Shown here in pieces: positions 4,001-52,910 of a stretch of DNA of 64,000 bases; the first letter of the stretch is position 1; each line of letters starts with the position of its first letter. Source of the stretch: Candidatus Gastranaerophilales bacterium (GTDB taxonomy: Bacteria; Cyanobacteriota; Vampirovibrionia; Gastranaerophilales; Gastranaerophilaceae). The stretch lies in contig CANRHZ010000004.1 of assembly GCA_947630535.1 (NCBI GenBank), positions 10,243 to 74,242 of the forward strand. The letters run 5' to 3'. The notes under the pieces are model-generated. The model was not told the origin of the DNA, searched no databases, and saw nothing but the letters and a program-made list of their open reading frames with translations. Both the position numbers and the translations under genes were made by a program.

Positions 4001-4333
4001 TGGGGAACTCACAAGTTTTTGGAAAAAAACGGCATACCAAGCAAAATGATTGAAAAATTCATGATAGATAAGCTCCAAAAACGTATGAAAGAGGGACGCT
4101 TAAGCTTTGTTATAAATACGCCGACTCTTGGTAAAAACTCTCAAACTTCAGGTTTTCAAATAAGAACCATAGCAGAGATGTATTGTATTCCTTGCTTTAC
4201 AAGCATAGATACACTAAGAGCATATTTAAGCGCCGTAAAAACCTACGATAAAAAGGTTAAACTCACAACAGACACCATTTCAAACTACAGAAAAAGAACA
4301 ATATTCGGATTGTTGGATAAAATTAAAAAATAA
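1088..4333 (+). CDS. carB: carbamoyl-phosphate synthase large subunit
   Basis: 1081 aa with a duplicated ATP-grasp architecture. GSGPIxIGQxxEFDY occurs twice (near res 14 and 560). Length and C-terminal domain are typical; an RBS-like AAGGAAA lies upstream. Confidence 0.97.
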   Translation: MGKDASIKKVMVIGSGPIVIGQAAEFDYAGVQACRALREENIKVVLVNSNPATIMTDENIADKVYIEPLDINMLEDIIQKERPDGLIASLGGQTGLNLAMELHKKGILEKYNLRLLGTKINSINKAEDREQFKNLMKEINEPVPESEIVSSYEDAKKFAQRIGFPIIIRPAFTLGGSGGGIAKNDEEYSQYVTTGLQQSPINQILVEKSIAGFKEVEYEVMRDSNDTCITVCNMENIDPIGIHTGDSFVVAPSQTLTNNEYQMLRTSAIKIIRALKIEGGCNVQFALDTNSNQYYVIEVNPRVSRSSALASKATGYPIAKVTTKIAIGYKLHEIKNAITKKTVAAFEPSLDYVVVKIPKWPFDKFANGDRILGTKMKATGEIMAIGRTFNSAFKKAIASLEEKNTGLTQRREFEEIGYTELINMLSIQDDRRIFRVSEALKRGVEPQLISQITKIDYWFISKIKELVDFERRLQNEELTKELYIKAKEEGFLNSEIAALTKKEEKELESFNVEAVFKIVDTCAAEFKAKTPYFYSTYGEEEEPEFIEEKKEKKKGGILVLGSGPIRIGQGIEFDYCSVHASWAITNNGYESIMINSNPETLSTDFDIADRLYFEPMNIENVMNVVKKENPIGVMVQFGGQTAINLAEKLDKKGVKILGTSIESINAVEDRKVFEKLLRELKIPQPKGKGVKSVQEALDATKELGYPVLVRPSYVIGGRGMQVVYNDDELLTYINEAFKFSSEHPVLIDQYLEGQEVELDAISDGKDVLIPGICEHIERAGVHSGDSMSIYPSQHILRKHEKTLVKYAKEIAKKTKIIGLMNIQFIIKDDVVYVIEVNPRASRTVPIMSKVTGIPMAKIAVNVILGKSIKSQGYKAGLYRKTNLVCVKMPVFSFQKLNRIDPALAPEMKSTGEVLGVDTNYKKALLKAFIAGGYKFGGRKQRVLVSLNDHYKKPALKIIKKMFNQGYFIMATWGTHKFLEKNGIPSKMIEKFMIDKLQKRMKEGRLSFVINTPTLGKNSQTSGFQIRTIAEMYCIPCFTSIDTLRAYLSAVKTYDKKVKLTTDTISNYRKRTIFGLLDKIKK

Positions 4334-4354
4334 AAGCCCTTGTATTAGGGCTTT
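4333..4354. terminator. bidirectional hairpin between convergent carB and the coiled-coil gene
   Basis: AAAGCCCT (4333-4340) pairs with AGGGCTTT (4347-4354) around a 6-nt loop. Flanked by an A-run on the left and a T-run on the right. Confidence 0.7.
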
Positions 4355-4388
4355 TATCTGTATGATAACATTTAAGATGTTGTTTTTA

Positions 4389-6032
4389 TTAAGCTGCAAG
4401 TGCATATATTCCGTACTGCATTGCTTCTTTTGCCATATCTTTGAATGCTTGAGCTTTATCGTCGGTTGCTTCAAAGAAGTTTTCATCTTTGTCATATTCG
4501 TTTTGGGTTAAAACGTCGTCATTTTTGTTGTCTTGAATTGATTTATCGTCGGTGATTTTTTCTTTCATTTGAGAAAGAAGGGATTCGCCTTTTGTTGCTG
4601 CAGATTTATCTTCAGAGTTTTTAGAAGTTTCAATTGAATTTTGTATGGTTTTTGCAATGGTGGTTGATTTTTCAATTTCTTTAGTTAAAACGTATTCGCC
4701 GTCAACTAATCTTTCTTGGAGCTTTGATAAACCTTCATAGTTTGATTTATCCGTTAAGCTTAAAAATGCCGTGTTAGCTGAGCTGAATTTTGCTCTGGCA
4801 CCGGAGAATGCATCCATAAAGTCTGAAATTGCTTCTTGGTTTTCATCTATTGTTGCCGTATCCGTTTTGTCTGAAACTTTTTGAGTGTATACGTTGTTAG
4901 AATATAATTCAGCTTTGTATGATTCGCTAACCATATCAATAGCATCTTTAGCATCAATACCTATAACATCTTCAGCGTTAAGTGTTAAAGTTTCAATATC
5001 GAACATATCGTTAACTATAACATCAGCCATAAGTTCATCAGTTTGTTCGTTATTTTCAATTCTTTCCATAACATCATCTGAAATGATATCATCAAATTTT
5101 GTTGTATCTTCATCATTAGCTATGGTTGAATTTTCATCCGCAACGGGTGTTTCAACAGATTGAGCCTGAGAAACAACGGTTTCGCTAGCGGGGGTTGCAA
5201 CTTGTTGAACTTGAGGTTGAACTTGTGCTTGGGGTTGTTCTTGTACTTGAGCTTGAGGTTGTTCTTGTACTTGTGCTTGGGGTTGTTCAGCTTGTTGTTG
5301 TACTGCTTGTTGTTGAGCTTGTTCAGCTTTAGCTTCTGTTTGTTCAGCTTGTTGTTGTCCTGATTGACCTTGAGAAGCGTTGCCGTCTGCTTGGCTTTGA
5401 AGTGATTGAGCTTGGCCTTCGAGTTCTTTAATTTGAGCTTCAATATTTGAAATTTCGTTTTCAATTCTTGCTTTTTCTTCTTCAAGTGAAGCTTTTTTTG
5501 TTTCCTGATCTGCTTTTTGATTTTCAAGTCCCATTTTTTCTGTTTTTAAGCTTTCAACTTGATTTTGAAGGTTTGATATTTGAGATTGAATTGAAGCTGC
5601 TTGAGCTTTGTATCCTTCATCTTCGCCTGAAGCAGCTTTGAGTTGATTAGCCGAAGATTGAAGGCTTGAAATATTGGATTCTATATTTGAAATATCTGAA
5701 TCAATGTCTGAAATTTGTGAAGTTGTTTCGCTTATTTGTGTAGCGGTTTCATTTAAGTCGGTGTTGGTTGTTTCTAATTGAGTGTTAGCTTCATTTTTAA
5801 GAGATTCTTGTTCTGTGGTTTGTGCATTAATTTCAGAGCCTTGTGAAATAATGCTATCAACTGCTTGAGAAAATGAATCACAGTTAACTGATTCTTGAAT
5901 AACTTCAGCAAATAAAGAATCGGAATCAGCTAATGCGCCTAATTCGCTAACTGCTGAATTTGCAGATTGAACAGAAGCGTCAAAGCTATTTTGAATTGGT
6001 ATTAAGTTTTGTCCTATTGAAGTTTCTGCCAT
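4389..6032 (-). CDS. hypothetical coiled-coil / Gln-Pro-rich repeat protein (paralog A)
   Basis: Long ORF; ATG at 6032 preferred (MAETSIGQNLIPIQN), GTG at 6044 possible. Layout: heptad-like S/Q/E/N-rich central region, then QAQVQEQP repeats, then an acidic C-terminal domain homologous to the neighbour at 6203-7711. No signal peptide or TM segment seen. Confidence 0.8.
   Translation of the reverse strand: MAETSIGQNLIPIQNSFDASVQSANSAVSELGALADSDSLFAEVIQESVNCDSFSQAVDSIISQGSEINAQTTEQESLKNEANTQLETTNTDLNETATQISETTSQISDIDSDISNIESNISSLQSSANQLKAASGEDEGYKAQAASIQSQISNLQNQVESLKTEKMGLENQKADQETKKASLEEEKARIENEISNIEAQIKELEGQAQSLQSQADGNASQGQSGQQQAEQTEAKAEQAQQQAVQQQAEQPQAQVQEQPQAQVQEQPQAQVQPQVQQVATPASETVVSQAQSVETPVADENSTIANDEDTTKFDDIISDDVMERIENNEQTDELMADVIVNDMFDIETLTLNAEDVIGIDAKDAIDMVSESYKAELYSNNVYTQKVSDKTDTATIDENQEAISDFMDAFSGARAKFSSANTAFLSLTDKSNYEGLSKLQERLVDGEYVLTKEIEKSTTIAKTIQNSIETSKNSEDKSAATKGESLLSQMKEKITDDKSIQDNKNDDVLTQNEYDKDENFFEATDDKAQAFKDMAKEAMQYGIYALAA
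5210..5299 (-). repeat. in-frame tandem 24-nt repeat encoding (QAQVQEQP)n
   Basis: Plus-strand units CTTGRGGTTGTTCTTGTACTTGWG at 5228-5251 and 5252-5275, with degenerate copies on both sides. Confidence 0.85.
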
Positions 6033-6144
6033 TTGTTTCACCACTTTCTACTAACATATATATAAAGTATATATAAAAGTCATAATTTCAAGTTTATCTT
6101 TTTTTGTTACATTTCTTTACAATATATTTCAAAAGTCGAGGTGC

Positions 6145-6180
6145 AAAAAAAAATCAGAGAAAATAATTTCTCTGATTTTG
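6145..6180 (-). terminator. rho-independent terminator of the 6203-7711 gene
   Basis: ATCAGAGAAA (6153-6162) pairs with TTTCTCTGAT (6167-6176) around a 4-nt loop. The A8 run at 6145-6152 gives a U-tract on the minus strand. Confidence 0.8.
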
Positions 6181-6202
6181 TGATTATTTATGTTTAACCT
6201 TA

Positions 6203-7711
6203 TTATTCTTCATTGATTTTTGTAAGGTTATATTTTGCCGCTTCTTCTTTTAGATATTTGAAGGCATTTTCAACATCCGTAGTTTTTAGCATATTATAAT
6301 GAGATTCGATTTTTGTGTATTCATCTTTATCAGGTTTATTTTCGGAAAACTTATCTTCGGACAAGTCTTGCAGTTGTTTCAATATAGCATCTGAAAATTC
6401 TTCGTATTTGGTTTTACCTATTTCGTTATCGTCTTTTTCGACAAATTGAATATTTTTAACGGATGAAGTTGTTTTTTCAAGGTCACTTGTTTTAATATAC
6501 TCACCGTCATTTATTCTCTCGAGCATATGTTGTCCGAGTTCATAATTGGATTGGTCAGTAATATTTGAAAATTCAAGATTTCCGGTATTAACTATATCTG
6601 AAACATTTAATACGGCTTCGGTAAAATCAGTTTCAGCACTTGAATGTTCTTGATTTGAAGCAGTGTCTGTTTTTGCCATTGCAGAGGACTTCGTATATAC
6701 CTGCTCGTTCATTTTTGATTCAATCATATCGGAAATGGCACTTGAAAGTTCCAATGCATCTGCATCAACTGCATCAAAATCACCTATCGTAAAGAGCCCG
6801 CCTGATGTTTCCATTATTTTAGAAAGATAGTCTTTAACATCTTCATGAACAAAATCAAAGAACCAGTTGTCATAGTTTTCTATAACTTTGTTTGAATCTT
6901 CTATAATTTGGTTAATGGTCTCATCTTGAATTCCTTGCGTTGGAGCCGAAGAAGAAAGGTTGGATGCTCCCTTTGTATCTGAATTCTGTTGAGCAGCGGA
7001 AGGTGTTTGAGCTTTATTTGCCGTATCTGAAGATGTACTTTTATTTGTCTTTTCGTTTTGCGGTTTTGGCTGAAGTTCCTGAATTTTAGATTTAATGGCG
7101 TCAGCTTCCTGAGCTTTAGCCTGCCTTTGAGAACTTAGCTCGTTTCTTTCGTTTTGAAGATTTTTAATTTCTTCCTGTGCGGCTTTAATCTGCTCCTGAA
7201 TTTTTTCATATTCTTCTTGAACACTTCTGGCTTGTTGTTTCAAAGTGTCGACTTTACCGTTTAATTGTTGCATATCGGATTTTTTAAACAGGCTTGAACC
7301 TGAAGCATGAGATTGTGTTTCATCCAGTTCGTTTGCAACAATGGCATACAGTTTATTCGTTTCTTGTGCCTGTCCGGAAAGTACGCTTGCCGTATTTGTT
7401 AAGGTCAAAATATTTGTTGTAGCTTCCGACATTTTCAAAGCATTATCAGCAAGTGAAGCGTCTATACCTTGTATTTCCGTTTCTTTATTTTGTAATTCAA
7501 CTTTAAGTGCAAGTACCTCCGGAGAATCGTTTGCACCGGCAGCTGAAACATCAAATGATTCGTCTTGTGCGGCAGGAGAAACGGAATCTTCAAATAAGGG
7601 CGCTACATAGCTTTCCGAATTTGTACCGTCTGCGTTTTGAGTCCGGTCGTTTGGCGGAACCTGGTTGAGTCCTTGGTTAGCATTCAGGTTAATTGGGATT
7701 TCATTTGCCAT
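6203..7711 (-). CDS. hypothetical coiled-coil protein (paralog B of 4389-6032)
   Basis: ATG at 7711 is preceded by a strong SD (AAGGAGGTAAAA ATG). N-terminus is MANEIPINLN. Has a central coiled-coil (LKQQARSVQEEYEKIQEQIKAAQEEIKNLQNERNEL), an S/T/Q/P-rich linker, and a C-terminal domain alignable with paralog A. Confidence 0.85.
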   Translation of the reverse strand: MANEIPINLNANQGLNQVPPNDRTQNADGTNSESYVAPLFEDSVSPAAQDESFDVSAAGANDSPEVLALKVELQNKETEIQGIDASLADNALKMSEATTNILTLTNTASVLSGQAQETNKLYAIVANELDETQSHASGSSLFKKSDMQQLNGKVDTLKQQARSVQEEYEKIQEQIKAAQEEIKNLQNERNELSSQRQAKAQEADAIKSKIQELQPKPQNEKTNKSTSSDTANKAQTPSAAQQNSDTKGASNLSSSAPTQGIQDETINQIIEDSNKVIENYDNWFFDFVHEDVKDYLSKIMETSGGLFTIGDFDAVDADALELSSAISDMIESKMNEQVYTKSSAMAKTDTASNQEHSSAETDFTEAVLNVSDIVNTGNLEFSNITDQSNYELGQHMLERINDGEYIKTSDLEKTTSSVKNIQFVEKDDNEIGKTKYEEFSDAILKQLQDLSEDKFSENKPDKDEYTKIESHYNMLKTTDVENAFKYLKEEAAKYNLTKINEE

Positions 7712-7795
7712 TTTTACCTCCTTAATATACACTTATTTAATAAAGATTAACGGCAAAATGTTGTAAAAATTTAAGATTGTTTACAAAAATTAATA

Positions 7796-8275
7796 TTATT
7801 TTTTTACGGTAAGTCTTTCTAAAAATCTGACAAATCTTGTTAAAAATCCTTCCGCATCTTTTGAAATCGAATCAACAAGAATTGTTTTCATACCTACTTT
7901 TTTGCCCGCAAGAATATCGGTTAGGGGCCTGTCGCCCACCATTACAACTTCTTTAATTTCTAAACCCATCTCATAACAAGCTATTTTTAAAATTTTAACA
8001 TCAGGTTTTCTTGCATTTCCGTAGACCTTAACGGGCGAAATCTTTTGAACCTTATCAACGTAGCTTTTGTTATGGTTATTAGATATAATTGCAATCTTAA
8101 AATCTTTTTTAAGTGAATTTAAAAAATCCAGAGTTCTTTTTGTAAATTTGCATGTCTTGGATTGCATAACCGTAGAATCAAGGTCAAAAAATATTCCTTT
8201 AATCCCCTTGCTTTTTAATTCAAGCGGGTTTATATCATATATGGACTCCAAATTATAATCAGGTTTTATTCGCAT
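7796..8275 (-). CDS. HAD-superfamily phosphatase, YqeG-like (subfamily IIIA)
   Basis: DxD motif FFDLDSTV, IISNN, and GDRPLTDILAG near the C-terminus. Size of about 160 aa is typical. Confidence 0.75.
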   Translation of the reverse strand: MRIKPDYNLESIYDINPLELKSKGIKGIFFDLDSTVMQSKTCKFTKRTLDFLNSLKKDFKIAIISNNHNKSYVDKVQKISPVKVYGNARKPDVKILKIACYEMGLEIKEVVMVGDRPLTDILAGKKVGMKTILVDSISKDAEGFLTRFVRFLERLTVKK

Positions 8276-23199: not shown

Positions 23200-23466
23200 A
23201 TGCCAATAAAAAAAATTCAAAATGTTTGTATGGAATTTTGGGGTTTGATAGAAAAAACAGAATTAAACAAAATAATTAAAGAGGCAAAAAGGTCTTGCGT
23301 AAATGATGCCCTAAAAAGACTCAAAGAATTTGACCCTATGAATGAAACTTTTTTTAAGTATGCCATGCCAAATGACACCCCAAATCTTCTGATTAAAAAA
23401 AGAGTAACAACAAACAAGCTTCTTTTAAAGAAAAGAGAAAAAGAGCTAAAAAAGCTATTAGGATAA
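23200..23466 (+). CDS. hypothetical basic protein (88 aa)
   Basis: ORF 10 nt after engB; Lys-rich C-terminus; no family recognised. Confidence 0.45.
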   Translation: MPIKKIQNVCMEFWGLIEKTELNKIIKEAKRSCVNDALKRLKEFDPMNETFFKYAMPNDTPNLLIKKRVTTNKLLLKKREKELKKLLG

Positions 23467-23496
23467 TAGACAAACTCAAAAGTTTAATGCTAAAAT
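23467..23496 (+). promoter_or_regulatory. sigma70-like promoter TAGACA-18nt-TAAAAT
   Basis: -35 TAGACA at 23467-23472 and -10 TAAAAT at 23491-23496. Predicted TSS near 23503, the first bases of the closing helix of the RNA below. Confidence 0.45.
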
Positions 23497-23501
23497 ATTA
23501 T

Positions 23502-23683
23502 TGCTTTATGCGGGTTTAAATTTTGTTCCTACATTTTACTAAAACGGGAGAGTAAGCTCTTAATAAAGGCAATTGAAGTATACCTTGGGCTTATTATAAG
23601 CTTTTTTAAAGGAAACGGATTTGCCGAGGCACTCACCCACCTGCCGGAGCTTGGCAGGTAACAAAATTCACCCGTATAGAGCA
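23502..23683 (+). ncRNA. ssrS: candidate 6S-like regulatory RNA (rod-shaped fold with central bubble)
   Basis: Hand-folded. 23502-23515 pairs with 23670-23683 (14 bp including 2 G.U). 23519-23527 pairs with 23660-23668 (9 bp). An open 18-nt A/U-rich strand at 23528-23545 lies opposite 23639-23659. 23546-23553 pairs with 23631-23638 (7 of 8). 23568-23572 pairs with 23621-23625. Apical hairpin at 23589-23601. The G.U pairs work only on the + strand. Confidence 0.45.
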
Positions 23684-23705
23684 CTATAAATAAAAAAGAG
23701 GAAGT

Positions 23706-24872: not shown

Positions 24873-26219
24873 ATGAAAGAAAACATAGAATTAAAAATCC
24901 ATAACATAAAAACAAAAGCGTACGAAACCCTTGAGAATGTGCCTTTATATAAGTATAAAGGAGTGGTTTCAAAACTTGTGGGCCTGACGGTTGATGTTAA
25001 ACTTCCGGGGCTTAAAATCGGGGATTTATGTTATATACAAACATATACCGGAGAAAAAAAGGCTGCGGAAGTTGTTGCTTTTAAAGGCGAGATGGCACAA
25101 CTTTTGCTTTTATATGACGGCGAAGGAATAGGACAGGGCTCTTTGGTTGAAACAACGGGAGGCCCCATTATGCTTCCTGTCGGAGATTTTTTACTCGGAA
25201 GGCTCATAAACCCTCTTGGTGAGCCTATGGATAGCCGCCCCTTAGATTTAGAGGGGGCAGAATATGTAAACATAAACGGAAGCGTTCCTGATGCATTCCA
25301 CAGACCCATTATTAAAGACACAATATTTACGGGAATAAGAGCAATAGACGGACTTTTGACTCTTGGCGGCGGACAGAGAATGGGGCTTTTTGCAGGTTCG
25401 GGGGTTGGAAAAAGTACAACCCTCGGCATGATAGCAAGAAACTCGGAAGCTGATGTTAATGTTATGGCCCTGATAGGAGAACGTGGGAGAGAAGTCAAGG
25501 AGTTTATGGTAAATTCTCTCGGGGAAGAAGGTATGAAAAAATCAGTGATAGTCTGTGCTACAGGCGACCTGCCCCCTCTTATCAGGATGAAATGCCTGCT
25601 TGCGGCAACAAGTGTGTGCGAATATTTCAGAGATAAAGGAAAAAAAGTTTTTCTTATGACAGACACGGTTACACGTTGTGCCATGGCAGGCCGTGAAGTG
25701 GGGCTATCAATCGGAGAACCCCCCACAATGAAGGGATATCCGCCATCAATATTTTCATGGCTTCAAAGAGCGCTTGAAAGAACGGGAAATTCCGAACGTG
25801 GTTCAATAACGGCACTTTATACCGTTCTTATGGAAGGGGATGACATAACAGACCCCATAGTAGACATTGTAAGAGGTATAGTTGACGGTCACATTTTCTT
25901 ATCAAGGAAAGTTGCGGAACAAAACCATTATCCCGCCATTGATGTTTTAGGTTCTGTTTCAAGGTTGTTTACAGAAATAACGGATAAAGAACATCAGGCG
26001 GCAGCATCCAAAATGCGTCAATTGATGGCCTTATATAGAGAGAATAAAGACCTTATTGATGTTGGCATGTACCAATCCGGTTCAAACCCAAAACTTGATA
26101 TTGCAATACAGTTAATGCCTGAAATTAACGCATTTTTACAACAGAAAGTTTCGGATAAAGTTACAATGGAAGGCACAATTCAGACTCTTAAAGATATGAT
26201 GAGGGATGTTAACATATAA
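24873..26219 (+). CDS. fliI: flagellar/type III secretion ATPase FliI/YscN family
   Basis: Walker A GSGVGKST, ALIGERGREVKEF, Walker B VFLMTDTVTR, GSITALYTVLMEGDD, HYPAIDVLGSVSR. 448 aa. Starts 18 nt after the hydrolase gene. Confidence 0.9.
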   Translation: MKENIELKIHNIKTKAYETLENVPLYKYKGVVSKLVGLTVDVKLPGLKIGDLCYIQTYTGEKKAAEVVAFKGEMAQLLLLYDGEGIGQGSLVETTGGPIMLPVGDFLLGRLINPLGEPMDSRPLDLEGAEYVNINGSVPDAFHRPIIKDTIFTGIRAIDGLLTLGGGQRMGLFAGSGVGKSTTLGMIARNSEADVNVMALIGERGREVKEFMVNSLGEEGMKKSVIVCATGDLPPLIRMKCLLAATSVCEYFRDKGKKVFLMTDTVTRCAMAGREVGLSIGEPPTMKGYPPSIFSWLQRALERTGNSERGSITALYTVLMEGDDITDPIVDIVRGIVDGHIFLSRKVAEQNHYPAIDVLGSVSRLFTEITDKEHQAAASKMRQLMALYRENKDLIDVGMYQSGSNPKLDIAIQLMPEINAFLQQKVSDKVTMEGTIQTLKDMMRDVNI

Positions 26220-42433: not shown

Positions 42434-43540
42434 ATGAGGAACAATATTAAAAAAGCAATAACAATAACAATTATACTCTCTTTTTTGAATATAAATTCGG
42501 CAATTGCAGCCCCCCTTAAGGGTTCTGTAAGCGAAGATGAAACAATAAATCATTCAAAAATGTTTACGGGGCAAACGGATAAATTGGACAAAAAAGATAC
42601 CGTAAAATTAACGGTATCTCACGTTATTAACGGTTCGATAAATGAAGAAGGGGATGAATTTTTTGCCGAAATAACAGAAGATGTTAAAGGAGATAAAGGG
42701 GTTATAATTCCGAAAGGTTCAATAGTCCATGGGATAATTCAATACATACAAGACCCCAAAAAATTAAACAGGGACGGATATATAATAACCGCATTTGATT
42801 ATCTTGTTACAAGCGACGGAAGGCAAATCCCCATTCAAGGAAGCCTGAGCACAAAAGAAAATTTGGCAAAAGGAACCCTAAAAAATATAGCCCAACACAC
42901 GGGGGTAACTCTTGTAACGGGGGCCATCGGCGGCTTAATGAGTATAAACCTGTTCGGGCTTGAAACCGCTATAGCATCCCACGGCGCAACGGTTGCGGGG
43001 GGAGCAGCCATAGGCGGTGCAATAGGGCTTGTATCAATGATGAACAGGAAGGGAGATGTCGTAAATTTAAAACCGGGTGATGAATTTGAAATAAAAATAA
43101 TAGGGGAAATTGACCTTCCGGTTTTTTCGCAAGACGCATTTAAAGAAGATGATTTATATATAGACGGACTTAATGTCGATATATTAAGCGCAAAGTACGA
43201 TAAAGACCCGTTTGGAGGAGATAACTTTATAACTCTTGATTTAAAAATAGAAAACAATTCAAATCTTGATTTTTACCCTTTTGATATTGCGCTTATGGAT
43301 GACATTAAAAAAGTCTATTACCCTTCCCCTTTTGGCGATAACGATATATGGTTTAATTCAATTAAATCGGGTGAGAAGGCAATCGGCAAAATGTCGTTTT
43401 CAATTAACAACAAAAAAAACAAACACTGGCTTATTTTTATGGACAGGGGAACAAAAAAACCCATAGCCAAATACTCCATAGAGTCACTTTTGATGGCAAA
43501 CAAAGATAAAAAAAATAAAAAATCAAGACATAAAGACTAA
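42434..43540 (+). CDS. secreted protein: TrbI/VirB10-like segment, glycine-zipper region, DUF4352-like Ig domain
   Basis: ATG 42434 gives the signal peptide MRNNIKKAITITIILSFLNINSAIA; the track start is TTG 42410. VIIPKGSIVHGII ... DGRQIPIQGSL ... VNLKPGDEFEIKIIGEIDL matches the TrbI pattern. Gly-rich GAIGGLMS...GGAAIGGAIG. C-terminus LDLKIENNS...GEKAIGKMSF. Confidence 0.6.
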   Translation: MRNNIKKAITITIILSFLNINSAIAAPLKGSVSEDETINHSKMFTGQTDKLDKKDTVKLTVSHVINGSINEEGDEFFAEITEDVKGDKGVIIPKGSIVHGIIQYIQDPKKLNRDGYIITAFDYLVTSDGRQIPIQGSLSTKENLAKGTLKNIAQHTGVTLVTGAIGGLMSINLFGLETAIASHGATVAGGAAIGGAIGLVSMMNRKGDVVNLKPGDEFEIKIIGEIDLPVFSQDAFKEDDLYIDGLNVDILSAKYDKDPFGGDNFITLDLKIENNSNLDFYPFDIALMDDIKKVYYPSPFGDNDIWFNSIKSGEKAIGKMSFSINNKKNKHWLIFMDRGTKKPIAKYSIESLLMANKDKKNKKSRHKD

Positions 43541-43594: not shown

Positions 43595-44962
43595 ATGGTT
43601 CAAAATAATATAAATACAAGCAGCTTGCTGCAATCGTATATAAATAAAACATCTTTAAATAAGAGCACTGATAGTAATGGCAACAATTTTCAACCTACAC
43701 CCCAAACTATAACAACTCCTGTTGATACGTTTAGCCAAAACGGGAATATTGACGAAAAACAAAGAAACAAAAAAAGAAAAGTTGCAAAAATAGCACTTTT
43801 TGGCGCCATGGGTTTAACCGTTACTCTTGGTTTACTTGCCGCATTCAGGCATCAGGGCGGTTTAATAAACACTGCAAAAAAAACAGTTGGAAATATTAAA
43901 GGCTTTTTCGGTTCGCAAAAAGAGGATGTTAAAAAAATAACGGAAAATATAGCCGAATATCAAAACGGAGCAGACAATCTTAACAGTGCAAAAGATTCAC
44001 TAATCAGGCATTTTATGATGAAAATTCCCGGATACAAATATTTTGATTCGCTGATGTCATCAATATATAAAAATTCAGCCGTAAAAGCTATGCAAAGAGG
44101 GTATTCAAAGGCTCTTAATATGATGAAAGACACTGATGAAGCCCTTCTTAAATCAGTAGAAAATTCGGATTTGGATTCAACACAGATAGAAAGATTAAAA
44201 GAACTTCTTTATAAAAGATTTGATACTTTAAAAAATCTTGCGGATAAAAGCAAGGTTAAAACAAGAATTGATAAGCTAAATAAATCAATGAAACGAATTG
44301 ATATAGAAGCTTATGAAAAAATGAAATCCGCAAAAGAAGGCGGCATTACAAAATTAAAAGAAAACCTTGATGATTTTTCAAGGCATGCCTGGGCCGAAAG
44401 CACTCTTGCAAACTCAAGAAACATACAGGCAAAACAACTTGAAGCATTTGAAAACTTTGGCTTAAGTACGCAAGAAGCCCTTGAATTAGATGAACTTATA
44501 AAAATCGGAACAAAAAGCAATCTTCAAATGAGAAGCGACGTTCAAAATTCATCTAAAGCTATGGAAAAAATATTTAAAAAAGAAAAAGGCGCAATGTTTG
44601 AAAAATTAAGAGATATAAATTACGGTTGCGCACCTGCTGATGCACTCGGAATACTTACAACAATGGGGTTATTAAAATTATACAGTGCACAGGCTGATTC
44701 AAAAGAAGAAAAAATGAAAGTGACGCTGACAACGGGCCTGCCCCTTATGGTTACATTAGGAACAACTCTGGGCGCAACAATTAAAATGGTTAGCGGCGCA
44801 AAAGCATTGGTTCTTGGCTTATTTACAGGATTTATTGCAAATAAAACCGGCAAAACAATCAACGAAATTTATCAAAAAAAGCACAATACTCAAGGAGCAC
44901 CCTCGACAATTATTACGCTTGATGATTGTGCAAAAACAGGCAACAAAAAATATGAAAAATAA
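43595..44962 (+). CDS. hypothetical membrane protein (455 aa)
   Basis: SD AAGAAGG upstream. N/T/Q-rich N-terminus, TM at about res 65-85, long helical middle, two C-terminal hydrophobic segments. Confidence 0.6.
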   Translation: MVQNNINTSSLLQSYINKTSLNKSTDSNGNNFQPTPQTITTPVDTFSQNGNIDEKQRNKKRKVAKIALFGAMGLTVTLGLLAAFRHQGGLINTAKKTVGNIKGFFGSQKEDVKKITENIAEYQNGADNLNSAKDSLIRHFMMKIPGYKYFDSLMSSIYKNSAVKAMQRGYSKALNMMKDTDEALLKSVENSDLDSTQIERLKELLYKRFDTLKNLADKSKVKTRIDKLNKSMKRIDIEAYEKMKSAKEGGITKLKENLDDFSRHAWAESTLANSRNIQAKQLEAFENFGLSTQEALELDELIKIGTKSNLQMRSDVQNSSKAMEKIFKKEKGAMFEKLRDINYGCAPADALGILTTMGLLKLYSAQADSKEEKMKVTLTTGLPLMVTLGTTLGATIKMVSGAKALVLGLFTGFIANKTGKTINEIYQKKHNTQGAPSTIITLDDCAKTGNKKYEK

Positions 44963-48117: not shown

Positions 48118-49299
48118 ATGAGAAAGATGCTTATAAAATTATTCGGCTTAGTTGCAATAATATGCTCAATGGCTATTACACCGGCTATTGCACTTGAAGA
48201 ATTTCCTGATGTCGAACCCGATTACTGGTCATACGATGCAATTATGTACTTTAAAGACAAAAATGTTTTATCGGGATATCCTGACGGATACTACAGACCT
48301 GACGATTTGGTATCACGTGCCGAATTTGCAACAATTATAACAAAGGCTCTGGGGCTAAGAGATATTAACAAAATTACGTTTACAAAATATAACGATATAA
48401 ATGAAAATCACTGGGCATATTATGATGTGATGCTTGGTTCATATTACAATTTAATCCATGGTACACCGAGCGGTTATTTTTATCCGAACAACAATATAAC
48501 AAGATTAGAAATCATTATGGTAATAATGAAAGCGCTTTCTATTAAAGAAATTACGGAAGATGAAGCTATAAGACAACTTTCCGTATATAGAGATGCTAAC
48601 GACGTACCTTATTGGGCAACTTTAACAACCGGTAAAGCTCAGCAATTGGGTTTAATAGTTCTTCTTCCGGGTAAAGAAGATTATATTCTTCCTAACCAAT
48701 ATGCAACCAGAGGCGAACTTGCAGTATGGTTATACGGAATGTTGCAAAGAGCCGCTATTCAGCCTTCGGAAAAATTACCCGAACAACCCAAAGGCCCGAG
48801 AAAAGTTGACGGATACGTTATTCCAAACGTAATTTTTGATGACCATTACGCTATAATTCCCGCAGGCACAACAATTCCTTTAGGTATTATGGACTGCTTA
48901 TTTACAAAAACGGCAAAAGAAGAAACCCCGATTTTAACAAGGGCGCTTATGAACTTTGTAAGTGAAGACAGAACTCTCCTTATACCTGTAGGTAGTGAAA
49001 TGGTTGGCGTTATAGATAAAGTCGGTGTCGGAAGAACAATGCTGAAAAACTCTCAAATGATATACAGAACAGAATCTCTGATTGATTCAAACACAAGACA
49101 ACCGATTGCACCGTTTAAGGCCGTTGCAAAAATGACTCCTCAGGTAAGAGAATTTACCCACAATCCTATATTACAAAAAATAGGCTTTAAGGGATTTAAA
49201 GGTCACAATTTCTATACACATAAATCTCAACAGGCAGATTTTGTTCTCCTTGAAGAAGTTAAAATTGATTTAGATGACGACCTTCATATAGTTCAATAA
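48118..49299 (+). CDS. SLH-domain protein with TrbI/VirB10-like C-terminal domain
   Basis: Signal peptide ending AIA-LEE. Three SLH-like repeats (FPDVEPDYWSYDAIMYF, YNDINENHWAYYDV, YRDANDVPYWATL). C-terminus IIPAGTTIPLGI ... LLIPVGSEMVGVI ... ADFVLLEEVKIDL. Confidence 0.7.
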   Translation: MRKMLIKLFGLVAIICSMAITPAIALEEFPDVEPDYWSYDAIMYFKDKNVLSGYPDGYYRPDDLVSRAEFATIITKALGLRDINKITFTKYNDINENHWAYYDVMLGSYYNLIHGTPSGYFYPNNNITRLEIIMVIMKALSIKEITEDEAIRQLSVYRDANDVPYWATLTTGKAQQLGLIVLLPGKEDYILPNQYATRGELAVWLYGMLQRAAIQPSEKLPEQPKGPRKVDGYVIPNVIFDDHYAIIPAGTTIPLGIMDCLFTKTAKEETPILTRALMNFVSEDRTLLIPVGSEMVGVIDKVGVGRTMLKNSQMIYRTESLIDSNTRQPIAPFKAVAKMTPQVREFTHNPILQKIGFKGFKGHNFYTHKSQQADFVLLEEVKIDLDDDLHIVQ

Positions 49300-51728: not shown

Positions 51729-52910
51729 GTGGAAAAGTTTAGACTAGATAATTTTAGCAGAAAATCAAGCGAGTTTGACAGATATTCAAACCAGGCAAAT
51801 ATTAAAGTTATAGGTGTTGGCGGCGGTGGCGGAAATGCCGTTGACAGAATGATTGCCGCAGGTTTAAGCGGTGTTGAATTTTGGGCAATGAATACGGATG
51901 CTCAAGTTCTTGAAAGGTCATCAGCACCTAAAAAAATTCAGCTTGGCGCAAAACTTACTGCCGGTCTTGGCGCAGGGGGAGACCCTACGGTTGGCGAAAA
52001 AGCGGCTGAAGAATCCAGAGAAGATTTACTTGTTGCTATAGATGGTTCCGATATGGTGTTCGTTACGGCCGGTATGGGCGGAGGAACAGGAACGGGCGCT
52101 GCTCCTGTTGTTGCAAAAATTGCAAAAGAATTGGGAGCCCTTACAATCGGTGTTGTCACAAAACCGTTTGGTTTTGAAGGCAAAAAACGTATGAATCAAG
52201 CAATTGCAGGTTTGGAAAAACTCAAAGAAAGCGTTGATGCTCTTATAGTTATTCCTAACGATAAATTAATTGAAGTTGTTGAAAGAAGAACCACAATGAG
52301 AGATGCCTTCCTTGTGGTTGACGAAGTTCTGTTAAGAGGTGTACAAGGCATATCAGACATTATTGTAATCCCCGGTCTTATCAACGTTGACTTTGCAGAC
52401 GTAAGAACTGTTATGCAGGCTTCAGGTTCCGCATTAATGGGCATAGGTAAGGCTTCAGGCGAAGGCAGAGCAATGGAAGCCGCAAAACTTGCAATTAATT
52501 CAAAACTTCTTGAAACTTCAATAAACGGTGCGACCGGCATCATTATGAATGTATCCGGCGGCCCCGATATGACTTTACATGAAGTTAACGAAGCCGCAAG
52601 TGTTATCCATGATGCCGTATCTGACAATGCGGAAGTTATCTTCGGTTCCGTTATTGACGATAGAATTCAGGGTGAAATTCAAATTACGGTTATTGCAACC
52701 GGCTTTAAACTTAAAGAAAATGAGCCCGCAAAAACACAGGAAAGAAAAATCAGTGCAGCAGACATATTCTCGGGCGGTTTATCCTTTGGCGATATGGGAG
52801 CAAAACAAAATCAGCCAAACCAATTCAATCAACCCATAAATAAACCGAATAACGATTCCGGGGCAGGGGGTCTGCTTGATATACCGGAATTTTTAAATCC
52901 GAAAAGATAA
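51729..52910 (+). CDS. ftsZ: cell division protein FtsZ
   Basis: GTG start after [17 protein letters not shown] and [13 protein letters not shown] tubulin signatures. Q/N/P-rich linker and a C-terminal peptide DIPEFL. Confidence 0.96.

Follow-up and report, generated by a model that had tools for sequence, protein, structure and literature searches.

Lineage-restricted coiled-coil paralogues of gut Gastranaerophilales and their conserved HLR1 and sigma-28-type promoter elements

Gastranaerophilales are uncultured gut relatives of cyanobacteria, and two questions about them have been asked since 2013: what RpaB and NblS do without photosynthesis, and why many genomes keep partial flagellar export machinery. 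We analysed a 64,000-nucleotide (64-kb) stretch of a Candidatus Gastranaerophilales bacterium assembly (GCA_947630535.1, contig CANRHZ010000004.1, positions 10,243 to 74,242; GC content ~35%), hereafter the window, and in it two adjacent genes, A and B, that encode acidic coiled-coil proteins with a common C-terminal domain (C-domain). The locus gives a handle on both questions: a conserved high-light regulatory 1 (HLR1) box stands before lineage-specific genes, gene A has a FliA-type promoter, and the proteins have features by which export could be told apart cleanly from cytoplasmic turnover. We tentatively favour, as plausible rather than probable, the reading that A and B are a paired, non-enzymatic, cytoplasmic adaptor or scaffold in an envelope or motility programme. 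If no lead holds, the pair is another lineage-restricted coiled-coil orphan. Coordinates are those of the window; L001 to L012 label related loci and P00xx database proteins.

The cyanobacterial regulator RpaB binds HLR1 boxes of the consensus (G/T)TTACA(T/A)(T/A)-N2-(G/T)TTACA(T/A)(T/A); RpaB sites centred about 50 nucleotides (nt) ahead of the start (peak near -51) are activating, and those at the transcription start site are repressing (PMC6525291). Melainabacteria keep rpaA, rpaB and nblS, whose role without photosynthesis is unknown, and rpaB is reported from Gastranaerophilales genomes (PMC3787301, PMC5877343; Di Rienzi et al., Utami et al.). About 25% of Gastranaerophilales carry full flagellar gene sets according to the literature, and published surveys found that the remainder retain the subset flhB, fliI and flgG, possibly for secretion.

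The locus resembles these and other described systems in some respects and departs from them in others. The box before B is an exact copy of the published HLR1 consensus at an activation-compatible distance, in a lineage where Melainabacteria retain rpaB and nblS. The host is non-photosynthetic, however, the putative targets are orphan coiled-coil genes instead of photosystem or high-light genes, and the box is always inverted. Gene A has the TAAA-N15-GCCGTTAA form of a late flagellar promoter of the sigma-28 class (FliA, SigD, WhiG) 35 nt before its ATG, but the genes downstream match no flagellar or chemotaxis family, and in A orthologues the -35 element overlaps an HLR1-like half-site. B ends in YALAA like the Escherichia coli ssrA tag, and the final AA is kept in most of the B clade, although the B tail is encoded in the genome and not added by transfer-messenger RNA (tmRNA). 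With FliK/YscP rulers and late type III secretion substrates the proteins share a disordered N-terminus, variable Q/P-rich repeats, a conserved C-domain, lack of Cys, acidity and poor conservation. They differ in matching neither Flg_hook nor T3S4, in a C-domain predicted to be all-alpha and not alpha/beta, in forming two paralogues with separate promoters, and in the AA tail of B. With PcsB, CwlO, EnvC and RipA they share the order of hairpin, linker and C-domain and an upstream direct-repeat operator of the OmpR-family type, but they have no signal peptide, no hydrolase or LytM domain and no FtsEX context, and their C-domain is all-alpha and acidic. With crescentin, FilP, coiled-coil-rich proteins (CCRPs) and PopZ/HubP they share a probable cytoplasmic location, acidity, a coiled coil or disordered acidic linker and a conserved terminal helical domain; here the hairpin is short, there is no sequence or fold relation, and some members dispense with the coil. 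By kind, the proteins look like coiled-coil/disordered-linker adaptor proteins.

Genes A and B lie side by side on the minus strand, each with a terminator of its own (hairpins read along that strand at 6179–6150 and 4359–4328), as a preliminary description of this DNA had claimed.

6203–7711 (stop codon included), minus strand: gene A, 502 amino acids (aa) from ATG, MANEIPINL...; upstream paralogue, A clade
6150–6179, minus strand: terminator-like hairpin of gene A, intrinsic type, with a T-run behind its 13-bp stem
4389–6032 (stop codon included), minus strand: gene B, 547 aa from ATG, MAETS...; downstream paralogue, B clade
4328–4359, minus strand: terminator-like hairpin of gene B, intrinsic type

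The ribosome-binding site of gene A is AAGGAGG; an alternative upstream GTG start would lengthen the B product to 551 aa. The A product is identical to database protein P0001 and the B product to P0004. At the position matching the gene A terminator, orthologous loci carry a hairpin rich in GC (GCCGCA...TGCGGCTTTTT), and the sequence marks A and B as separate transcription units. BLASTP aligned the two proteins at 26% identity (E=2e-17) over 370 columns, which begin where the coiled coil ends and run to the C-terminus, and the C-terminal segments that had been judged by eye to be about half identical agree at 19 of 39 positions. By these alignments A and B are true paralogues, and they hold the only two copies of the family C-domain in the window.

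The promoter elements, which the preliminary description had not noticed, are the most informative part of the locus. Upstream of B we found two of them.

6106–6123, plus strand: exact HLR1 box GTTACATTTCTTTACAAT, inverted relative to B and ending 73 nt before the B ATG
6058–6075, minus strand: AT-rich core-promoter block TATATATACTTTATATAT, 25 nt before the B ATG

The box is the sole exact HLR1 match in the window, where 0.02 would be expected. L001, L002, L004, L007, L008 and L010 each have an exact box at the corresponding site with the same orientation, and L006 has one before A and one before B. With up to one mismatch allowed, 16 matches were found in 229 kb (the window plus the loci), all of them intergenic; each precedes either a gene of the A/B family or another orphan gene. 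Those before family genes keep one constant orientation and usually lie 66–84 nt from the ATG (37 nt at one alternative start). The centre of the B box is 82 nt from the ATG and about -50 to -62 from the starts compatible with the AT-rich block, a position compatible with, and close to, the activating position of RpaB. The upstream DNA of A and B is far better conserved than the encoded proteins. B orthologues share the direct repeat TGTAAA(G/C)AA(A/T)TGTAACA, the element TTGAA(A/T)T and the 17-nt core ATATATACTTTATATAT, which is identical in the window and seven other loci, where the proteins are just ~20–55% identical. A sigma-70 promoter for B (TTGAAA, then TATACT at 14-nt spacing) was considered and rejected. 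The B leader showed no Rfam match and no significant fold (z=-0.64) as an RNA element, no sigma-28-type element was found upstream of B, and no OmpR-type regulator gene was found in the window.

Gene A carries a different core promoter.

7747–7773, minus strand: sigma-28 (FliA/SigD)-type promoter TAAATTTTTACAACATTTTGCCGTTAA, ending 35 nt before the A ATG
7770–7797, plus strand: degenerate HLR1-like half-sites TTTACAAA and TTTAAGAT, two mismatches each, abutting or overlapping the gene A -35

The sigma-28 consensus is an established one. Nowhere in the window except at the gene A promoter is TAAA-N15-GCCGWTAA matched exactly (0.11 matches expected), and a sigma-28-type element also stands upstream of the A orthologues in L001, L002, L005, L007 and L010 and upstream of both genes in L009. 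With a TAAA-N15-GCCGATAA-type element that is conserved and at the proper distance, gene A has the features of a putative sigma-28 regulon member. A orthologues carry better HLR1-like copies than the window does (CTGTTAAGTTATGTAACAG, one mismatch to HLR1). From the conserved promoters we infer that an RpaB-like regulator and a flagellar-type sigma factor control A and B.

The same elements recur before other orphan genes. A family of 158-aa orphans is encoded at L001:20156-20686, L002:20130-20660, L005:20181-20711 and L007:20159-20692 and, in the window species, at L011:1-586. In the four sister loci a perfect TAAAGTT-N12-GCCGATAA lies 27 nt before the ATG, with an HLR1-like box (TGTAAACAATTGTTACA) 16 nt upstream of the -35, and contig L011 shows the same arrangement (TCCGATAT). 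These perfect sites suggest that the clade uses FliA-type promoters, and the shared elements suggest a common upstream operator, or regulon, for A, B and the 158-aa orphan. The 158-aa gene adjoins the pyr cluster with no flagellar genes beside it; its family has 38 database relatives and no Pfam or PDB match. Kinship of this orphan with the C-domain was rejected (hhalign probability 0.4%). Two genes from the 158-aa orphan, at L012:11185-11202, an exact HLR1 box stands 107 nt upstream of a 114-aa orphan open reading frame (ORF; MNPVQSFKEAPTAAK...), a candidate further member of the regulon. The combined HLR1 and sigma-28 wiring turns the questions of RpaB/NblS and of the partial flagellum into specific experiments.

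The family is narrowly distributed. A whole-protein word-index search with A found A itself as the sole match, coiled-coil words crowding the candidate list. An exhaustive profile search with the C-domain against 1.84 billion representative proteins returned 25 matches, all with E≤3e-17 and none weaker; the family is therefore closed and lineage-restricted. No database source gave a name to any of the 25 relatives. Six related loci among GTDB species genomes all belong to Gastranaerophilales metagenome-assembled genomes. Further loci were taken from ENA, NCBI and Logan assemblies and from a JGI metagenome scan, which added one. Every relative that could be traced to a source came from Gastranaerophilales or from the same syntenic block, and by sequence the family does not extend beyond one subclade of gut Gastranaerophilales. 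The block runs TPR/TonB-C protein, LuxR-type response regulator, uvrA, small ORF, U32 peptidase, HAD phosphatase, A, B and carB-carA-pyr, and the order HAD, A, B, carB is fixed. A tblastn search of 50,697 phage and 72,556 plasmid records found no homologue. Cargo of a mobile element, phage or defence system was rejected on the fixed chromosomal synteny and the lack of such homologues.

In a neighbour-joining tree of C-domains, the first genes (A clade) and the second genes (B clade) separate, so the duplication is old. Relatives of 230–250 aa branch beside the B clade and consist of the N-terminal peptide and C-domain only, the hairpin being gone; in L008 one of them takes up the usual genomic slot of the pair, directly 3' of the HAD gene. 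Since these short forms lack the coil, it is the C-domain that forms the core of the family, with coiled coil and spacer as accessory parts. All members are very acidic (isoelectric point (pI) 4.05–4.4, with one short form at 4.7) and have almost no Cys or Trp. Between genera A and B are 29–41% identical, against 84–89% for carB, HAD and uvrA. At L009:6194-9905, both tandem genes (P0017 and P0021) have A-clade C-domains and GCCG(T/A)TAT sigma-28-like -10 elements; a second duplication or gene conversion seems to have displaced the B type there. An extra basic gene of ~565 aa lies between B and carB at L004:3352-5061 and L006:10887-12575. It has only weak HTH_17 and FliJ matches and was rejected as a third paralogue of A and B.

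Profile, alignment and models agree on the four-part layout and acidic C-domain that had been described as common to both proteins.

7073–7522, minus strand: predicted antiparallel coiled-coil hairpin, A residues 64–213 (AlphaFold2 full-length model, heptad scan)
6926–7072, minus strand: disordered S/T/Q/P/K-rich linker, A residues 214–262 (predicted local distance difference test (pLDDT) <50; unalignable between genera)
6206–6925, minus strand: C-terminal family domain, A residues 263–502 (profile match, alignment, AlphaFold2 model)
6206–6685, minus strand: confident core of the A C-domain, residues 343–502 (AlphaFold2 model)
5388–5870, minus strand: heptad-rich helical region, B residues ~55–215 (heptad scan, B-clade N-terminal alignment)
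5148–5387, minus strand: Q/A/E/P low-complexity spacer, B residues 216–295 (sequence)
5217–5288, minus strand: 24-nt tandem repeat inside the B spacer, encoding QAQVQEQP
4392–5147, minus strand: C-terminal family domain, B residues 296–547, predicted all-alpha, with near-EF-hand loop DNKNDDVLTQNEY and free tail GIYALAA

The C-domain is the most constrained of these parts across the family, with eight invariant and eight near-invariant positions (residues D, A, Y, T, I, L, E, F and G) around a core motif GEY-x-x-T. None of the conserved positions is a Cys, His or Ser. As the domain offers no such conserved nucleophile, a binding role is likelier than catalysis. An AlphaFold2 model of the B C-domain from a 22-sequence alignment is all-alpha (pLDDT 80.9, predicted template modelling score 0.62), with a long helix at residues 155–196 and a free, unstructured C-terminal tail of low confidence. 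We sought a profile or fold match to a characterised family, taking Foldseek E≤1e-3 or TM>0.5 as a fold match, and found none. The best match in the Protein Data Bank (PDB) had E=1.3 with a query TM-score (TMq) of 0.24, the top TMq was 0.37, and the best match in BFVD had E=1.2. Pfam-A, NCBIfam, PHROGs and PADLOC gave sub-threshold coiled-coil noise (SMC, Rad50, Filament, JetC and the like), and the curated libraries held no consistent match for any of 22 C-domains, in line with the earlier report of no known domain. Membership of any known protein family is therefore unsupported. Sizeable, well predicted and with no relative in PDB or BFVD, the C-domain is a candidate new fold family.

A PDB sequence profile search returned calexcitin alone (E=0.12), aligned on EDKNDDVLTQKEYDxIENFF. 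The loop DNKNDDVLTQNEY of B is near an EF-hand and carries Lys as its third residue; no such loop is present in the A clade. Under the PROSITE EF-hand pattern PS00018, 42 of the 43 family sequences fail, both window proteins included; P0009 is the single member with a canonical loop, DNDNDDVLTQNEY.

The heptad-rich coiled coil of the preliminary description was borne out in its periodicity (A ~65–110 and 140–200; B ~85–150 and 175–205 in a crude heptad scan), and in A it can be refined to a predicted intramolecular antiparallel hairpin. In the full-length A model, residues 1–60 are disordered, and helices at 64–135 and 140–213, in agreement with the heptad scan, are joined by a four-residue turn. 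The hairpin is ~10 nm long, with block-mean pLDDT of 63–92, and its two ~72-residue helices make up less than 30% of the protein. The B helical region has a G-containing break near residues 134–141, and by analogy with A it probably forms a helical hairpin as well. Foldseek searches with full-length A matched generic hairpins alone (SteB, HP0958, colicin R-domains, EmrA/HlyD, SMC, p85 iSH2), the best and still insignificant one being the SteB-RipA coiled coil (E=0.06).

Each genus has its own, unrelated low-complexity repeat as spacer: QAQVQEQP in the window, and ETPVAE, EPPKAETQTT, AQAEAK and EEPKA elsewhere. The repeat first reported for B was recovered by Tandem Repeats Finder with period 24, 3.0 copies, 89% matches and a score of 123. 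In L001:9550-9760, on a metagenome scaffold, a run of N lies within a long AQAEAK-type repeat of the B orthologue; because the run splits the gene, the gene caller gave a 239-aa C-terminal fragment (P0002). Repeat-rich spacers of the family break assemblies. In P0011 (B clade, 687 aa), residues ~300–380 form an extra beta-rich spacer insert (KFEVTINGKTADVEVEVLPDGTYNIV...) followed by EEPKA repeats, so the spacer is able to acquire folded modules. Close strain relatives, among which the repeat had been proposed to vary in length, did not turn up among the GTDB loci or in the JGI metagenome scan; members of 573 and 594 aa in one 90% cluster differ only in the start codon called at the N-terminus.

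The N-terminal I-P-I-[QN] motif noted earlier is present in the window pair and private to this genome; orthologues do not have it. An [LV]F-acidic motif near residues 35–50 recurs in A, B and the short forms. It was rejected as a beta-clamp motif (QLxLF), whose consensus is kept inconsistently across the family. Reading the sequences and their N-terminal composition, with no dedicated predictor, we saw no signal peptide or transmembrane segment, as had been stated before; the first 25 residues have neither a basic n-region nor a hydrophobic core.

B ends in ...GIYALAA, unstructured in the AlphaFold2 model. A C-terminal AA, in the form hydrophobic-Ala-Ala on tails of differing length, occurs in 14 of 17 B-clade proteins, against 3 of 12 in the A clade and 1 of 55 window ORFs. 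The E. coli ssrA tag closes with the same five residues, YALAA, and its LAA end is the classical ClpX recognition signal. With an accessible C-terminal hydrophobic-Ala-Ala, B carries a putative ClpXP degron, and we infer ClpXP-type turnover of the protein. No tmRNA or tRNA gene was found in the window.

We tentatively read the pair as a cytoplasmic adaptor because it has no recognised export signal and B has a degron-like tail; the absence of signal peptide and transmembrane segment, the acidic pI and the near lack of Cys and Trp fit this location. A and B would be transcribed separately yet co-regulated, an HLR1 repeat ~50–60 nt upstream of the likely start of both genes activating each, with a sigma-28 (FliA-type) core promoter at A and the invariant AT-rich one at B. 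In the proteins, a disordered N-terminus of ~60 residues, low in charge, rich in S/T/N/Q and bearing the [LV]F-acidic motif, would precede a hairpin that serves oligomerisation or docking. The fast-evolving acidic repeat spacer would act as a flexible tether, the C-domain would bind a partner, and the hydrophobic-Ala-Ala end of B would tune B levels as a ClpXP-type degron.

Several points weigh against the cytoplasmic adaptor. The gene neighbourhood is housekeeping and uninformative. The hairpin of B is taken by analogy from A. The AA tail is missing from most A-clade proteins, and it could be a recognition peptide for something besides ClpX. Other OmpR-family regulators, WalR among them, have sites similar to the HLR1 half-site TGTAA[AC], so the regulator may be other than RpaB. 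The N-terminus, disordered, with few charges and rich in S/T/N/Q, resembles a type III export signal, and together with the sigma-28 promoter, FliI and rapid divergence it fits an exported protein at least as well.

The cytoskeletal or scaffold role and the non-classical export that had been proposed from the sequence are the two leading hypotheses. In the export hypothesis, the main rival to the adaptor and in our estimate a doubtful but serious one, A, B and perhaps the 158-aa orphan are flagellar type III substrates that are surface, filament-associated or host-facing. In its favour, the N-terminal 60 residues are disordered, and the first 25 average 2.8 charged and 8.5 S/T/N/Q residues, compared with 6.0 and 4.8 in the other window ORFs. 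Helices of the terminal D0 type are lacking, however, and the N-terminus is not predicted to be helical. The flagellar gate-recognition motif FxxxPhi was also rejected: the F at ~40 is conserved, but the hydrophobic residue at +4 occurs in the window pair and few others only, so that the motif as a whole is unconserved. The conserved sigma-28-type promoter of A points the same way as the N-terminus, although sigma-28-class factors also control non-flagellar genes in other phyla. The tandem arrangement recalls flaA and flaB of Campylobacter, which are paralogues with different promoters. A very acidic composition with almost no Cys or Trp, and low identity between genera beside well-conserved neighbours, a pattern typical of exposed proteins, fit export too. 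Against it, no model of Flagellin_N/C, Flg_bb_rod, FliD_N/C, Flg_hook or FlgM in Pfam or NCBIfam matched at E≤1, nor did any for FlgK/L or FliK, and FlaG matched only the disordered linker of A (E=0.05). The ssrA-like tail of B suggests cytoplasmic turnover. As for machinery, the window encodes a FliI/YscN-family export ATPase at 24873–26219 on the plus strand (TIGR01026 at 533 bits, cutoff 379.5; ATP-synt_ab and T3SS_ATPase_C), and about a quarter of Gastranaerophilales have full flagellar sets, but no flagellar gene adjoins the A/B locus or the 158-aa gene. The neighbours of this lone fliI gene are all non-flagellar: a YsxC GTPase, a 382-aa orphan with a signal peptide directly upstream, and oxaloacetate decarboxylase beta on the downstream side. 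We consider unlikely the bolder proposal that A, B and the 158-aa orphan are the first recognisable NblS-RpaB output regulon in non-photosynthetic cyanobacteria, FliA-wired and made of fast-evolving, host-facing substrates of a complete or relic flagellar type III apparatus.

An intermediate-filament-like cytoskeleton, in which the coiled coils polymerise and shape the cell as in crescentin, FilP and the cyanobacterial CCRPs, is decidedly less credible. It would account for the heptad-rich helical segments, the weak sub-threshold matches to Filament, SMC and Rad50 coiled-coil models and the cytoplasmic features, and RpaB is known to affect cell size in Synechococcus. Yet the two ~72-residue helices are predicted to fold back as a hairpin and form no long parallel rod, the coiled coil is less than one third of the protein, short members without it keep the C-domain and the genomic slot, and conservation lies in the C-domain and not in a rod. 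Because of the short hairpin and the relatives without a coiled coil, a classical filament-forming rod is disfavoured.

A further possibility, which we rate as highly improbable, is a module like PcsB, CwlO or EnvC, whose hairpin docks on an FtsEX-type ATP-binding cassette transporter and whose C-domain regulates cell-wall remodelling, with expression under an essential OmpR-family regulator. The parts come in the same order (hairpin, low-complexity linker, C-terminal effector domain), and the best Foldseek match, insignificant as it is, was SteB-RipA. WalR drives pcsB and cwlO through the box TGTWAH-N5-TGTWAH, which the upstream repeat TGTAA[AC]-N4-TGTAA[AC] resembles, but the spacing here is the 10 nt of HLR1 and not 11 nt. 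PcsB, CwlO, EnvC and RipA are all exported, whereas A and B have no signal peptide; the all-alpha C-domain lacks conserved Cys/His or LytM-type residues, Pfam gave no CHAP, NlpC/P60 or M23 signal, and no ftsEX lies nearby. The notion that A and B are acidic calcium-binding or storage proteins acting through an EF-hand-like C-domain loop, hinted at by calexcitin as the sole PDB profile match, the passing loop of P0009 and a pI of ~4, can scarcely be credited given an insignificant E-value, 42 of 43 sequences failing PS00018 and a single loop with no paired EF-hand.

Other features of the window lie apart from the A/B locus. At 23460–23690, before the 382-aa ORF and fliI, a comparatively GC-rich, non-coding stretch of ~230 nt gave no Rfam match at the gathering threshold; it could be a leader or regulatory RNA. 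Two adjacent orphan proteins, both with no Pfam or NCBIfam match, are encoded on the plus strand at 42434–43540 and 43595–44962. One, of 368 aa, combines a signal peptide with a hydrophobic segment rich in Gly/Ala; its 455-aa neighbour has an N-terminus rich in N/S/T, hydrophobic segments in its interior and a middle part that resembles a coiled coil. Further along the plus strand, an S-layer homology (SLH)-domain protein is encoded at 48118–49299 and FtsZ at 51849–52910. The FtsZ ORF as listed begins inside the conserved N-terminal region, so that translation may really start at a non-ATG codon further upstream.

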